The notes beneath the pieces were generated by a model. That model saw only the letters and a list, made by a program, of their open reading frames with translations, was not told the origin of the DNA and did no database searches. The translations under genes and the position numbers were made by a program. From contig JBEPYO010000001.1 in the NCBI GenBank assembly GCA_041641295.1, positions 485,262 to 517,261 on the forward strand: a stretch of DNA of 32,000 nt, read 5' to 3'. This document shows, one piece after another, positions 10,535 through 14,633 of this stretch. Positions within the stretch are counted from its first letter, which is position 1; each line of letters opens with the position of its first letter. This stretch comes from Nitrososphaerota archaeon (GTDB lineage: Archaea > Thermoproteota > Nitrososphaeria_A > Caldarchaeales > Calditenuaceae).

Positions 10535-10827
10535 CTGGCCTCGCCCAGTAGTGAAGAGTTTCCAAGATCGATTATCGCAACGGCTGATGCTCCGAACGGC
10601 TTACCGAGCGCTTGGCCTATCTCTCTCGCGGTCAGGTCAGAGTAGATTATAGGGATCGCCGAGATCTTAGCTGCGAGTTCCATCTTCTGCCTCACGCTCT
10701 CCGGGCAGTTACTGGCTAGGACTATAGCCTTAGCCGACTTCCTCACCACGCTCAGATAGCTCTGCCTAAACCCGAGCAGGTATTTCCCAGTGAGCCTGAT
10801 AACTCCGAGCTCCTTCCTCACGTCCAT
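10531..10827 (-). CDS. rpl30e: 50S ribosomal protein L30e
   Basis: KSAKAIVLASNCPESVRQKMELAAKISAIPIIYSDLTAREIGQALGKPF is an L30e/L7Ae-fold signature. The ATG overlaps the rpoA stop (TAATG). Confidence 0.9.
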   Translation of the reverse strand: MDVRKELGVIRLTGKYLLGFRQSYLSVVRKSAKAIVLASNCPESVRQKMELAAKISAIPIIYSDLTAREIGQALGKPFGASAVAIIDLGNSSLLGEAS

Positions 10828-13800
10828 TACTTCCCACCCGCATCGGAGCCCGACCCGCTATTCTGGTTCGGCAGGAGGTCGCTATACCTCATCAGGAGGC
10901 TCACCCTGCCAGTACCGACAGGAACCTCCCTGCCTATTAAGATTCTCTCAATGTTCCCCTGCAGATGATCAACCTCGCCAGATGCAGCCGCCTCAACCAG
11001 CGTCTGGAAGCTAATCTCGAAGGCCGCCCTCGCAAGGACGCTCGACTTCAGCCTCACAACACCGTGCCTCCCAACCTGTCTAACCCTCCCATCTAATGTC
11101 ATGGCGTCTGCCAATAGTAGCAGGTGTCTGACGTCGACGTCGAGGCCCTGCTCCCTCAAGAGCTGTTGAGCCTCCTCGACTATTAGCTGCCTCGCCGCCT
11201 CAATGCCGAGGACTGAGGCCACCTCGTGAATGTCGTTCGTCCTAACCCTTCTGAAATCAACCTCAGGTATGGACATGACCTCCTTGAGGTTTGAGCCCTC
11301 TGTCTGTATGAGGTATTCACCACCCTTCTTCCGGACGACAGCCTTTGTTATCTTCTTCACACCTCTCAGCCTCGTGTTAAGTATCCTAGTTTTCAGAAGT
11401 TCTAGAGAGTCTTGTTCAACCTCCTTAACTGTCAGGGAGACAGCCCGTTTAGACTCGATGAACTTGGGCTTGTAGGGCTTCAAGGCCTGGCTTAACTCCT
11501 CCCGCGTCACGTTTAGTTCCTTCAAGGCCTCTTCATCGAGCATGAGTATTATGTTGCCGGTCCTCGCCTCTATCCTAATCTCGTCTACAACATCGCCGAC
11601 GCTTATGTATTGGAGCCTGCTGGCAATCTTCCTAGCTAGCTTCGGATCCTGGTTGTAGGGTGGTTTAAGATATATGTACATCATGGGCGTGGAGGGTGCC
11701 CTTCTTGCATCGATTATCTCGATAAGCCTAGGTAGTCCTACGAGGATGCTCTGCTCCCTAACACCAGCGAAGTGGAATGTCCTGAGCGTGAGCTGTGTCC
11801 CAGGCTCGCCAAGGGACTGGGCTGCGATGATTCCGACAGGGTCTCCAGCCTCAACCATGCTTTGGAGATAGACCCGGTACGCCGTTGCGAAGACCCTCTC
11901 TATAGCGTCCTTCGGGACCTTAAGTTTGAGACAGGCGTCCGATAACTCCTGGATAGCCAGGGGTGGCATCAACCCCTCATACTTCTTGGCTACAGCCTCG
12001 ACATCCTCTTTTGCGGCTGGGCTGCCTTCGCCCTGCTGCTCCATTAGGACTTGCGATATGATGTTGGCGGGGATAAACGGCTTTCCGTGGTCGCTCTTAC
12101 CAGGGTCGACGCCGTCCTCGCCGTATAGGAATTGAACGATTTTCTTGGTGTCTGACATTCTGACTGAGCCGTCAAACTCTACGTAGAGTGATTCGAGGGC
12201 GTTTATGAGCCTACGCTGCATGTAGCCGCTCTGCTGCGTCCGGACCGCAGTGTCGACCAGCCCATCCCTTCCGCCCATCAGGTGGAAGAAGAACTCTATC
12301 GGGTCGAGGCCCTTGATGAATGGGTTGTATACGAAGCCTCTGGCGCGTGGAGATAGGTCGCCCCTCTCGAAGAACGTTAAGACTCTGTCCGTAAATCCTC
12401 TGCTAGGCCTCTCCCTCCTAACCGCCTGCTGACCAACTATGGCAATCATCTGGTCAATGTTCAGGGTGCTCCCCCTCGCTCCGGTCCTAGCCATGATGAC
12501 GAGTGGGTTGTCTATGGAGACATACTTCCTCACGAAGCTGCCAATCTCGTCCCTAGTCCTGGAGAGGAGTTCAAGTATTTCGGACTCAAACGCTTTCTCG
12601 GGAGTCTCACCGGGCTTAACTTCCAGTCTCCCCTTCTCATAGTCGGACTTTAGCTGCTGGAACTCCTTCTCCATCTTGTGGAGGTAGGATTGGACCTGCT
12701 TGTACACTTCCTCGGGTACCGTTAGATTCTCTATGCCGAATGTGAAGCCTCGGAGGTTTATGTACGTGTTGGCGAGCCTAATGACTCCGTTGAGGAATCT
12801 TGCAGCCTCCTCGTAGCCGTATTCCCTGAATATTCTGTGCAGAACGCTGTTAGCCTTCTCTACACCCACTATAGCCTTATCAATGAATCCTTGGACTAGC
12901 TTCCCCTTCTCTATTACGACCTGAGTATCTGAGCTGAAGTTGGACTGGACCCTGTGAGACAGGGTGGGTGGCAGGAGTAGGCTGAACACCTGCTTGCCGC
13001 TCCAAAGAGGCTGAGGATCTGTCTTCTCAGGTGGAGGCAGCTCGCCCTTGTACCCTATCGCGGAGAGGAGGTAACCAAGCGTCTGCTTATCCACATATGT
13101 GCCGTCTTTTGTCAACAGGTAGAGCGAGGTCAAGAAGTCTCTTATTGCACCTATAATCGGTGCGCCATATCTGGCGGAGATTATGTTTCGCTGGACCTGT
13201 AGTAGGAGCCTTGCCTCGGCCTGAGCCTCCTCACTCTGCGGGACGTGGAGGTTCATCTCGTCGCCGTCGAAGTCGGCGTTATAGGGTGTGCAGACTGCTA
13301 GGTTGAGTCTGAAGGTCTTATAGGGTAGGACTTTGACGCGGTGAGCCATGATGGAGACTCGGTGTAGGCTTGGCTGCCTGTTGAATAGTACAATGTCCCC
13401 GTCCCTTAGATGCCTCTCGACGATCCAGCCCTCCTCGAGGCTCTCAGCAACCTCGTCCAAGTTCTGAACATTCTTCAGACGAATCATCTTCCGGTCAGGC
13501 TTGATCACGTATTTTGCTCCCGGGTACTTGTCAGGCCCGTTCCTCACCATCTCCTTCAGCTTCTCCTTATTCCAGGGAGTGACGATCTCCGGTACGGTGA
13601 GCTGCATAGCTATCTCGAGTGGGACGCCCACCTCGTCGAAGTCTATGAGGGGATCGGGTGAGATGACTGTGCGCGCGGAGAAGTCGACACGTTTCCCGGA
13701 GAGGTTAAGCCTGAAGCGGCCCTCCTTACCCTTAAGCCTCTGGGCGAGCGTCTTCAATATCCTGCCCGACCTGTGCTGGGCCGGTGAGATACCTATCGTC

Positions 13801-14633
13801 TCGTTGTTGATGTAGGTTGTTACGTGGTATTGTAGTAGGTCTGAGAGCTCTGCTATGACTGGCGAGGGTGCGGCCGCTGCTATGCTCTCCTTCAGCCTCT
13901 GATTTACCCTCAGTATGTCGACCAGCTTGTGGGTTAGGTCGTCCTCAGAGCGGTAGTTGCTCTCAAGGGTTATTGAGGGCCTTACATAGACAGGGGGGAC
14001 GGGGAGTACTGTTAGAACCATCCACTCCGGCCTTGAAGACTGTGGGTCGATGTCGAGGAGCTCCAGGTCTGAGTCCGGTATTCTCTCGAGCCGCTGTCTC
14101 ACTGAGCCTGCTGTAAGCCTGACAGCCCCCTGTGGGGTGGATTCTACGAAGGTTGAGGGCTTCTCCAGCTCTATCTTAAACTGCTTCTCGCCGCAGTGTG
14201 GGCAGGTTTGGGTGGCCATTGCCTTTTGCTTAACCTTGTAGAAGAGGTGTCTGTACATTCTCCCCTCCTGCTTCAGCTGCCGCAGCCTCGCCCTGGTCTC
14301 CTCGATCTCGTTCTGGCTTAGCAGCAGCCTTCCACAAGACCTGCACGTACACCTAAGCAGTTCATGAATAATCTTGACGAATCCTATGTGTATGACGGGG
14401 ACTGCAAGCTCTATATGCCCAAAGTGTCCCGGACACGAGATGTATGTGTTTCCGCAGGTCTTGCACCTCTGCCCCGGCTCAAGAGTGCCTAGCATCGGGT
14501 CCATGACACCTGTCGGTATCGGCATCCCGTCCTCGTCGTAGGTGTCTGGACTCTGAACCTCGACGACACTCATACTCCTGATTAGGTTTGGCGGAAGTAT
14601 ACCGAACTTAATTGCTGAGATTATCCCCCTCAA
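10827..14633 (-). CDS. rpoA: DNA-directed RNA polymerase largest subunit, A' and A'' portions in one continuous frame
   Basis: A' motifs are [16 protein letters not shown], the zinc site [20 protein letters not shown] and the catalytic [17 protein letters not shown]. A'' motifs are [22 protein letters not shown] and GIEAARQLI. There is no stop between them. The likely TTG start at 14633 lies 8 nt after GGAGGTG and overlaps the rpoB stop. The ORF-track extension to 14807 lies inside rpoB. Confidence 0.9.
   Translation of the reverse strand: [1268 protein letters not shown]

Follow-up and report, generated by a model that had tools for sequence, protein, structure and literature searches.

A fused RpoA, the largest subunit of RNA polymerase (RNAP), has been listed as a 'fusion' for Caldiarchaeum subterraneum, Thaumarchaeota, and Korarchaeota (PMC3082918, Table 1 and text; 2010), was reported for other Thaumarchaeota (PMC4084955), and, in work published later than 2010, was also found in Bathyarchaeota (PMC5484517). 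The unsplit rpoA gene has been used since ~2008-2010 in arguments on archaeal phylogeny and rooting (PMC3082918, PMC5484517), and the literature debates whether Archaea had the fused state ancestrally or acquired it later (PMC5484517). The split alternative, with separate A' (Rpo1N) and A'' (Rpo1C) subunits, is represented by Sulfolobus/Saccharolobus and Thermococcus/Pyrococcus (PDB 2WAQ, 2PMZ, 4QIW, 8CRO).

The stretch of 32,000 nucleotides analysed here (the window) carries an rpoA gene that, like the unsplit RpoA of C. subterraneum, Thaumarchaeota, Korarchaeota, and Bathyarchaeota, consists of one ORF (~1260-1280 aa in these groups) with all Rpb1 domains, and no architectural difference from the known unsplit RpoA was detected, only the species being different. 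Full-length matches included Candidatus Caldarchaeum sp. (62-63% identity) and Nitrosopumilus and Nitrososphaera (48% identity). The rpoB gene of the window is unsplit as well, and the two subunits together fit the 'fusion' pattern listed for these groups (PMC3082918, Table 1). The original prediction had held that an unsplit gene was known only from Korarchaeota, a restriction contradicted by the published reports for Thaumarchaeota, Caldiarchaeum, and Bathyarchaeota, as well as by the close homologues, every one of which is unsplit.

Gene structure and operon context

The rpoA gene is placed in a standard rpoH-rpoB-rpoA-rpl30e-nusA operon with overlapping stop and start codons, and the features of the locus are as follows.

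18022..18276, minus strand: rpoH (Rpb5 C-terminal domain; Pfam PF01191), first gene of the operon
14630..18025, minus strand: rpoB, unsplit, 1131 aa (Pfam Rpb2 domains 1-7)
10827..14633, minus strand: rpoA (Rpo1/A), unsplit A-type largest RNAP subunit, a single ORF of 1268 codons plus TAA
12045..14633, minus strand: A' (Rpo1N)-homologous part, residues 1-863 (NF006336, Sulfolobus A' alignments, motifs)
Residue 57 of the product: Zn site of the A' part (motif match on the translation)
13260..13280, minus strand: catalytic Mg-binding motif NADFDGD, residues 452-458 (regular expression on the translation; inside Pfam RNA_pol_Rpb1_2)
12192..12263, minus strand: bridge helix, residues 791-814 (motif match and alignment)
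12024..12053, minus strand: variable linker, residues 861-870, the site where other archaea are split (column entropy)
12042..12046, minus strand: TAATG pentamer (Leu CTA plus Met ATG), with the TAA out of frame
10827..12044, minus strand: A'' (Rpo1C)-homologous part, residues 864-1268 (TIGR02389, Sulfolobus A'' alignments)
11772-11810, minus strand: trigger-loop motif, residues 942-954 (motif match on the translation)
10531..10827, minus strand: rpl30e (Pfam PF01248)
10100..10534, minus strand: archaeal NusA-like KH-domain protein (Pfam KH_2, KH_5), last conserved gene of the cluster

The rpoB stop overlaps the rpoA start (TTGA), the rpoA stop likewise overlaps the initial ATG of rpl30e (TAATG, 10825-10829), and the gene order up to the NusA-like gene is the same in the related loci L081-L083. 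Scans of the whole window for tRNAs and Rfam families returned no match. On the minus strand, the frame stays open from 14807 until it reaches the TAA at 10829-10827, with no in-frame stop within 10830-14633. The rpoA start is TTG at 14633-14631, as previously chosen, with a Shine-Dalgarno-like stretch (GGAGGTG) 5' of it, and gene callers picked the equivalent start in relatives, whose products begin with the same residues.

The product of 1268 aa contains the Pfam RNA_pol Rpb1 domains 1-5 (Rpb1_1 to Rpb1_5) in collinear order, and both NCBIfam equivalogs were detected above cut-off within this one protein, that for A' (NF006336) at residues 4-865 and that for A'' (TIGR02389) at residues 889-1249. 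ORF continuity, the five Rpb1 domains, and the two equivalogs in a single protein confirm that A' and A'' are encoded in one uninterrupted gene of ~1268 codons, as had been predicted. Orthology of rpoA is unambiguous at the sequence level (E-value 0, full length). The catalytic NADFDGD loop, the bridge helix, and the trigger loop (residues 452, 791, and 942) are intact and near-invariant across 121 aligned sequences, in which bridge-helix residues 791-810 hardly vary at all, and the same three elements are conserved between the window rpoA and the split Rpo1N/Rpo1C systems.

The homology of the split subunits of Sulfolobus/Saccharolobus and Thermococcus/Pyrococcus is collinear with the window rpoA, with the Sulfolobus A' chains aligning to residues 5-855 and 4-862 and the A'' chains to residues 878-1249. 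The linker is of comparable length to that of split archaeal A'/A'', with no insertion at the junction. In contrast to the split Sulfolobus/Thermococcus type, characterized by a stop and a separate start between the bridge-helix and trigger-loop blocks, the window rpoA showed no such pair between these blocks and neither a stop codon nor a restart at residues ~864-871. The eukaryotic Rpb1, RPC1, and RPA190 are single polypeptides like the window rpoA, and yeast Rpb1 819-876 and 1035-1120 align to the flanks of the junction; however, the two blocks are separated by ~160 residues in the eukaryotic proteins compared with ~58 in the window rpoA, which has no CTD.

The junction between the A' and A'' parts

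The linker at residues 861-870 had a mean column entropy of 2.68, compared with 1.10 for the whole protein (121 sequences), and no other 10-residue bin from residue 781 to 960 is as variable. The end of Sulfolobus A' and the start of A'' extrapolate to residues ~866-867 of the window rpoA, the Thermococcus A' end maps to residue ~871, and in Hadarchaeota A' ends 28 residues beyond the tyrosine of YGEDG, a position occupied by Met864 in the window. On these alignments, Met864 lies within about 7 residues of the split sites of Sulfolobus, Thermococcus, and Hadarchaeota. The equivalogs and the split-lineage alignments thus agree with the original prediction that the two homology blocks meet at or near Met864.

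At the junction, the DNA is CAA GTC CTA ATG GAG, with Met864 encoded by the ATG at 12044-12042, and both the sequence GTC CTA ATG GAG and the TAATG with its out-of-frame TAA are as first reported. The A'-type homology stays in frame right up to the junction (...SQVL, compare ...SKVLG and ...SRFLG), bearing out the earlier view that the frame is authentic to this point, and therefore a frame change need not be invoked. Only 2% of the 121 aligned sequences have a Met at the position of Met864. The 92% identical relative (L001) has GTG TTG GAG GAG at this position, and the 90% identical relative (P0002/L081) has GTC TTG ATG GAG, sharing the Met; the pentamer is absent from both.

Distribution of the unsplit gene among relatives

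The best 120 homologues were all unsplit, with 1247-1288 aa, five Rpb1 domains, and 53-92% identity, and their protein clusters are named Nitrososphaerota, Aigarchaeota, Caldarchaeales, Thaumarchaeota, or Bathyarchaeia. The best match outside the genome itself (P0001/L001; 92%) belongs to a MAG from the Jinze hot spring. A single ORF through the junction was found in 69 of the 80 related species-representative loci fetched, whereas the 11 split loci belong to Hadarchaeota, Hodarchaeota, Methanosarcinales, Woesearchaeota, and Thermoprotei. Across Aigarchaeota, Bathyarchaeia, and Nitrososphaeria, every relative down to 48% identity shares the unsplit gene, and the comparison with the rpoA loci of close relatives revealed the unsplit state as a character of the clade and not a private event.

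A search with the A'' part only, whose matches did not include the full-length unsplit homologues, uncovered no genuine stand-alone A'' in close relatives, as the candidates above 50% identity were fragments from short contigs and the nearest stand-alone A'' proteins were at most 47% identical to the A'' part of the window. The only match with an unqualified A'' name (P0125; 413 aa) begins 58 nt from a contig end. Its frame, reading ...DGIDPAKSYHGEAVN..., is open up to that end, and it was therefore rejected as a genuine separate A'' and assigned to a truncated fused gene. Separately, in nine of the 11 loci of split lineages, A' and A'' were in frame with a single stop between them.

Origin of the single reading frame

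The locus is almost certainly an ordinary orthologous rpoA of an archaeon of the aigarchaeote/thaumarchaeote lineage, in which the largest subunit is predicted to be one polypeptide throughout the clade. Loss of a real stop through an indel in a homopolymer (such as the C4 run, 30 nt upstream of the junction), which would have joined two genes during sequencing or assembly, was conceivable for a source that is a metagenome-assembled genome, and had been raised as a possible cause. Reproducibility was judged by comparing independent assemblies: WUQR01000139.1 of MAG ILS100 (Indian hot spring) matched the window with 0 mismatches over 9807 nt (100% identity), and the Logan assembly of SRR27869038 covered the same 9807 nt, again with 0 mismatches, although this run is unrelated to the three (SRR8368399, SRR8369092, and SRR8369165) from which MAG ILS100 was built (PMC9241837). 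Because the sequence is identical in MAG ILS100 and in the assembly of an unrelated run, a homopolymer error is very unlikely; moreover, the peptide encoded over the C4 run and beyond it is conserved in P0001 and L001 (the 92% relative), and the same frame, unsplit architecture, and length recur in more than 120 independent protein clusters, leaving an artefact with next to no probability.

The original prediction further regarded the TAATG as the vestige of a stop/start overlap between formerly split rpoA1 and rpoA2 genes that a 1-nt frame change had joined in this lineage, a reading favored by the pentamer at the junction, by the same overlap at the rpoA/rpl30e boundary, and by the position of Met864, equivalent to an A'' start. 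However, because the unsplit state is common to the Aigarchaeota, Bathyarchaeia, and Nitrososphaeria relatives, any fusion must be older than the clade itself, too long a time for a neutral pentamer to have persisted. The in-frame A' homology, the TTGGAG and TTGATG of the two nearest relatives, and the rarity of the Met likewise speak against a recent fusion. In addition, TAATG is not enriched in the window (29 observed versus 37.2 +/- 5.9 expected), and an out-of-frame TAA or TGA precedes five of the 27 internal Met (ATG) codons of rpoA, so that such a configuration is common by chance and the vestige interpretation is abandoned, the fusion itself being highly improbable. Similarly slight is the chance of dual expression from a genuine fused ORF, with Met864 as an additional, internal start for a free A''-like protein: an in-frame ATG does stand where the homologous A'' begins, and the 90% relative has it too, but no G-rich Shine-Dalgarno-like element precedes the ATG at 12044, unlike those before rpoB, rpoA, and rpl30e, the Met is missing from the 92% relative and 98% of homologues, and it is one of 27 internal ATG codons. 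If such dual expression did occur, a cell with both the fused subunit and a free A''-like fragment might represent an intermediate stage between the fused and the split arrangement. Both the Met codon and the TAATG are probably incidental, arising from a lineage-specific substitution beside the CTA Leu codon, although no formal proof is possible that the placement of this Met precisely on the split site, also seen in the 90% relative, is a meaningless coincidence.

For the ordinary unsplit rpoA, ORF continuity, domain content, the clade-wide unsplit state, and the reproducibility of the sequence were directly observed. The source organism corresponds to MAG ILS100, placed by GTDB in Thermoproteota, class Nitrososphaeria, near Caldarchaeales. 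The clamp Zn site lies in the N-terminal two thirds of its RpoA together with the bridge helix and the catalytic NADFDGD loop, and the trigger loop and jaw lie in the C-terminal third, with both parts joined by the short, poorly conserved linker (~861-870) where Crenarchaeota, Euryarchaeota, and others have a stop and restart. Judged from the sequence, a single polypeptide of ~140 kDa is likely made and would assemble like A' plus A''.

In summary, the unsplit rpoA is real, ordinary, and already known, and is neither a recent fusion nor a sequencing error. As a textbook marker of Thaumarchaeota, Aigarchaeota, Bathyarchaeota, and Korarchaeota, it carries small weight as a discovery; of more use is that the assembly of the gene and its reading as a single ORF are both correct, and the gene helps to place the organism in the unsplit group and not in Crenarchaeota or Euryarchaeota.

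Organization of rpoA and the neighboring genes

A single minus-strand frame, open from 14807 down to its TAA stop at 10829-10827, carries rpoA, with a product of 1268 aa. The TTG start at 14633-14631, as chosen in the original prediction, shares TTGA with the rpoB stop codon and lies downstream of the Shine-Dalgarno-like GAGGAGGTGGGTGGGAG; gene callers picked the equivalent start in the closest relatives, the first 11 residues of the products being identical. Pfam analysis revealed RNA_pol_Rpb1 domains 1-5 collinear within one protein, and the equivalogs of both subunits exceeded their curated NCBIfam cut-offs.

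Features of RpoA (residue numbers of the window protein)
5-311: RNA_pol_Rpb1 domain 1 (Pfam)
313-479: RNA_pol_Rpb1 domain 2 (Pfam)
483-636: RNA_pol_Rpb1 domain 3 (Pfam)
664-768: RNA_pol_Rpb1 domain 4 (Pfam)
775-1198: RNA_pol_Rpb1 domain 5 (Pfam)
4-865: subunit A' equivalog NF006336 (NCBIfam)
889-1249: subunit A'' equivalog TIGR02389 (NCBIfam)
57: clamp Zn motif, intact
452: NADFDGD, intact
791: bridge helix, intact
942: trigger-loop motif, intact

A' and A'' are thus encoded as one uninterrupted gene, as originally proposed, and the window rpoA has all the testable features that define the unsplit A-type Rpo1 and lacks the one that defines the split type. Stop and start codons overlap by 1-4 nt at every boundary from rpoH through rpoB, rpoA, and rpl30e to the gene of the NusA-like KH protein.

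Genes of the RNA polymerase operon and of the haem-copper oxidase cluster
18022-18276, minus: rpoH, operon gene
14630-18025, minus: rpoB, unsplit, 1131 aa, Rpb2 domains 1-7 (Pfam)
10827-14633, minus: rpoA, third gene of the operon
10531-10827, minus: rpl30e, operon gene
10100-10534, minus: NusA-like KH protein, operon gene
2491-3126, plus: COX2
3128-5455, plus: fusion of subunits I and III, 775 aa, after COX2

Directly downstream of the RNA polymerase operon lies radA (Rad51/RadA, 339 aa; 8998-10017, minus), a placement conserved in relatives; in many archaea, rps12/rps7/EF genes are found downstream of this operon. Between radA and a family-B DNA polymerase gene are two function-unassigned ORFs of 100 and 237 aa (7948-8950, minus), with synteny kept in the relatives' loci L081-L083; the 237-aa ORF had no family match, and the counterpart of the 100-aa ORF in L081 and L082 matches DUF8156. 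The polymerase itself (688 aa; 5849-7915, minus) is divergent, falling under every NCBIfam cut-off, with variant motifs A (DFDSQYPS) and C (YGDVDS) and no exonuclease motif when scanned with a simple D[IV]E pattern, and may represent a PolB2-like enzyme or one deficient in exonuclease activity. The haem-copper oxidase cluster (2491-5455, plus) suggests aerobic respiration. In addition, a 440-aa ORF (20929-22251, plus) combines OMP decarboxylase (PyrF) and orotate phosphoribosyltransferase (PyrE) domains, scoring 87 bits, far below the cut-off of 656, with the NCBIfam bifunctional PyrF/PyrE model.

Split and unsplit rpoA among relatives

The protein search revealed that the best 120 clusters (53-92% identity), named Nitrososphaerota, Aigarchaeota, Candidatus Caldarchaeales, Caldarchaeum, Wolframiiraptor, Thaumarchaeota, or Bathyarchaeia, were each 1247-1288 aa long with all five Rpb1 domains. 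In 69 of the 80 species-representative GTDB loci ranked highest by tblastn, one ORF passed through the junction; these included the aigarchaeotal L001-L004 (63-92% identity), Bathyarchaeia (51-55%), Nitrosocaldus, Nitrososphaera, and Nitrosopumilus (47-50%), and Geothermarchaeota (44%). The 11 split loci belonged to Hadarchaeota, Hodarchaeota, Methanosarcinales, Woesearchaeota, and one member of Thermoprotei. An A''-only search found genuine stand-alone A'' proteins only at ≤47% identity (Methanomethylicota, Thermofilum, Sulfolobales, Baldrarchaeia, and Odinarchaeota), closer short matches being contig-end fragments.

The unsplit gene had been thought, in the original prediction, to be noted only for Korarchaeota, which is incomplete, as fused RpoA is also published for C. 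subterraneum, Thaumarchaeota, and Bathyarchaea. RpoA is listed as 'fusion' for C. subterraneum, Thaumarchaeota, and Korarchaeota (Table 1 of PMC3082918), where rpoB has the same state in Caldiarchaeum, Thaumarchaeota, and Korarchaeota, in agreement with the window rpoB. The single rpoA of Thaumarchaeota was also noted in PMC4084955, and in PMC5484517 the distinction between A-type and A'A''-type polymerases, with 'fused Thaumarchaea and Bathyarchaea sequences' among those described, serves as a character in the argument over the archaeal root.

Two public records deserve comment. P0125 (413 aa; L084:1-1299), the only close short match with an unqualified A'' name, was rejected as a stand-alone A'': its frame remains open up to the end of the contig and continues through the A' C-terminal motif, so that a fused rpoA truncated at a contig end has been annotated as a complete A''. 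L011, labelled 'Candidatus Methylomirabilota bacterium' yet carrying an unsplit archaeal rpoA with 52% identity to the query, has a junction peptide resembling Bathyarchaeia loci and a Bathyarchaeia-like rpoA, and is probably a mis-binned contig.

Of the 11 split loci, a biased, tblastn-ranked sample whose proportions are not to be generalized, 9 had A' and A'' in the same frame (L054, L056, L057, L062, L063, L066, L075, L079, and L080), with one stop codon and 0-4 additional codons between them, as at L063:3368-3376; the Methanosarcinales boundary reads GAA TAA ATG GCA. The ranking may favor such pairs because an alignment can run through a stop codon. Given this arrangement, a single substitution, without any frame change, could interconvert the split and fused states.

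Sequence and origin of the A'/A'' junction

The junction DNA reads CAA GTC CTA ATG GAG, as first described, the ATG (12044-12042) encoding Met864. Sulfolobus A' chains (880 aa) aligned with RpoA residues 4-862, reaching chain residue 875, and the A'' alignment started with chain residue 13 at RpoA residue 878, so the Sulfolobus break is extrapolated to residues ~866-867. The end of Thermococcus A' corresponds to residue ~871, and Hadarchaeota A' terminates 28 residues past the Y of YGEDG, the position of Met864 in the window protein, indicating that the junction had been correctly located. When the window protein was aligned with 120 homologues by MAFFT, residues 861-870 formed the most variable 10-residue bin within 781-960 (mean column entropy 2.68 vs 1.10 for the whole protein), and the Met864 column had Met in 2% of sequences, with Leu as consensus. 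In eukaryotic Rpb1, about 160 residues separate the corresponding blocks (819-876 and 1035-1120), compared with about 58 in the window RpoA.

A homopolymer error, for example at the C4 run upstream of the junction, had been considered possible. The exact window protein is encoded by five public contigs, two of which match the 9807 nt around rpoA (window ~7.8-17.6 kb) with 0 mismatches: WUQR01000139.1 from NCBI (1.26 Mb; GCA_009889515.1) and a Logan assembly of run SRR27869038. The first contig belongs to MAG ILS100 (WUQR00000000; 2.11 Mb, 52.3% GC), which carries the label 'Ca. Thaumarchaeota' and was assembled from SRR8368399, SRR8369092, and SRR8369165 of Indian hot-spring sediment (PMC9241837); since SRR27869038 is not among these, the Logan contig represents another run. 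The peptide encoded over the C4 run and beyond is also conserved in the relative with 92% identity. A homopolymer or assembly error is therefore very unlikely.

TAATG at the junction had been read as the remnant of a stop/start overlap between two genes fused by a 1-nt frame change. The one remaining oddity is that a Met codon falls exactly on the homologous split site, and chance explains it adequately. The pentamer is absent from the junctions of L001 (92% identity; CAG GTG TTG GAG GAG) and L081/P0002 (90%; CAG GTC TTG ATG GAG); it requires both a Met substitution common only to two sister species and a synonymous CTA Leu codon private to the window genome. Nor is it enriched: the window contains 29 copies of TAATG, whereas shuffles predict 37.2 +/- 5.9, and rpoA has 27 internal ATG codons, 5 of them with an out-of-frame TAA or TGA in front. 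A'-type homology keeps one frame up to the junction, confirming the frame as authentic that far, and comparison with the A' ends of Thermoprotei (HGKPVDLDYILSKVLG), Hadarchaeota (RGKAVNVEKLLSRFLG, then stop), and Thermococcus (QGKTVDVDRVIVRTLLKMRGGG) gave no sign of a shifted frame. Moreover, the unsplit state is common to lineages differing by >50% in sequence, so any fusion or split event was ancient, and a neutral pentamer would not survive since then. TAATG is therefore not a vestige. Internal initiation at Met864 also seems unlikely from the sequence, because no Shine-Dalgarno-like element precedes the ATG at 12044 (ATCATATCGCAAGTCCTA), unlike the G-rich elements ahead of the rpoB, rpoA, and rpl30e starts.

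RpoA as a probable single subunit

Of the original interpretation, the unsplit gene stands, but not its rarity in the clade, its recency, or the vestige. An unsplit rpoA is not unusual for this organism. The gene, carried by a published MAG, is a typical orthologue of a type already known. RpoA identities of 62-70% to Aigarchaeota/Caldarchaeales-named proteins vs 48% to Nitrosopumilus and Nitrososphaera suggest an organism nearer Aigarchaeota than ammonia-oxidizing Thaumarchaeota. The third gene of a translationally coupled operon (rpoH, rpoB, rpoA, rpl30e, NusA-like KH protein), rpoA would be expressed as one ~140 kDa chain, with its A'-type and A''-type blocks connected through a short variable linker, and this single polypeptide would provide what Rpo1N and Rpo1C together provide in Sulfolobus.
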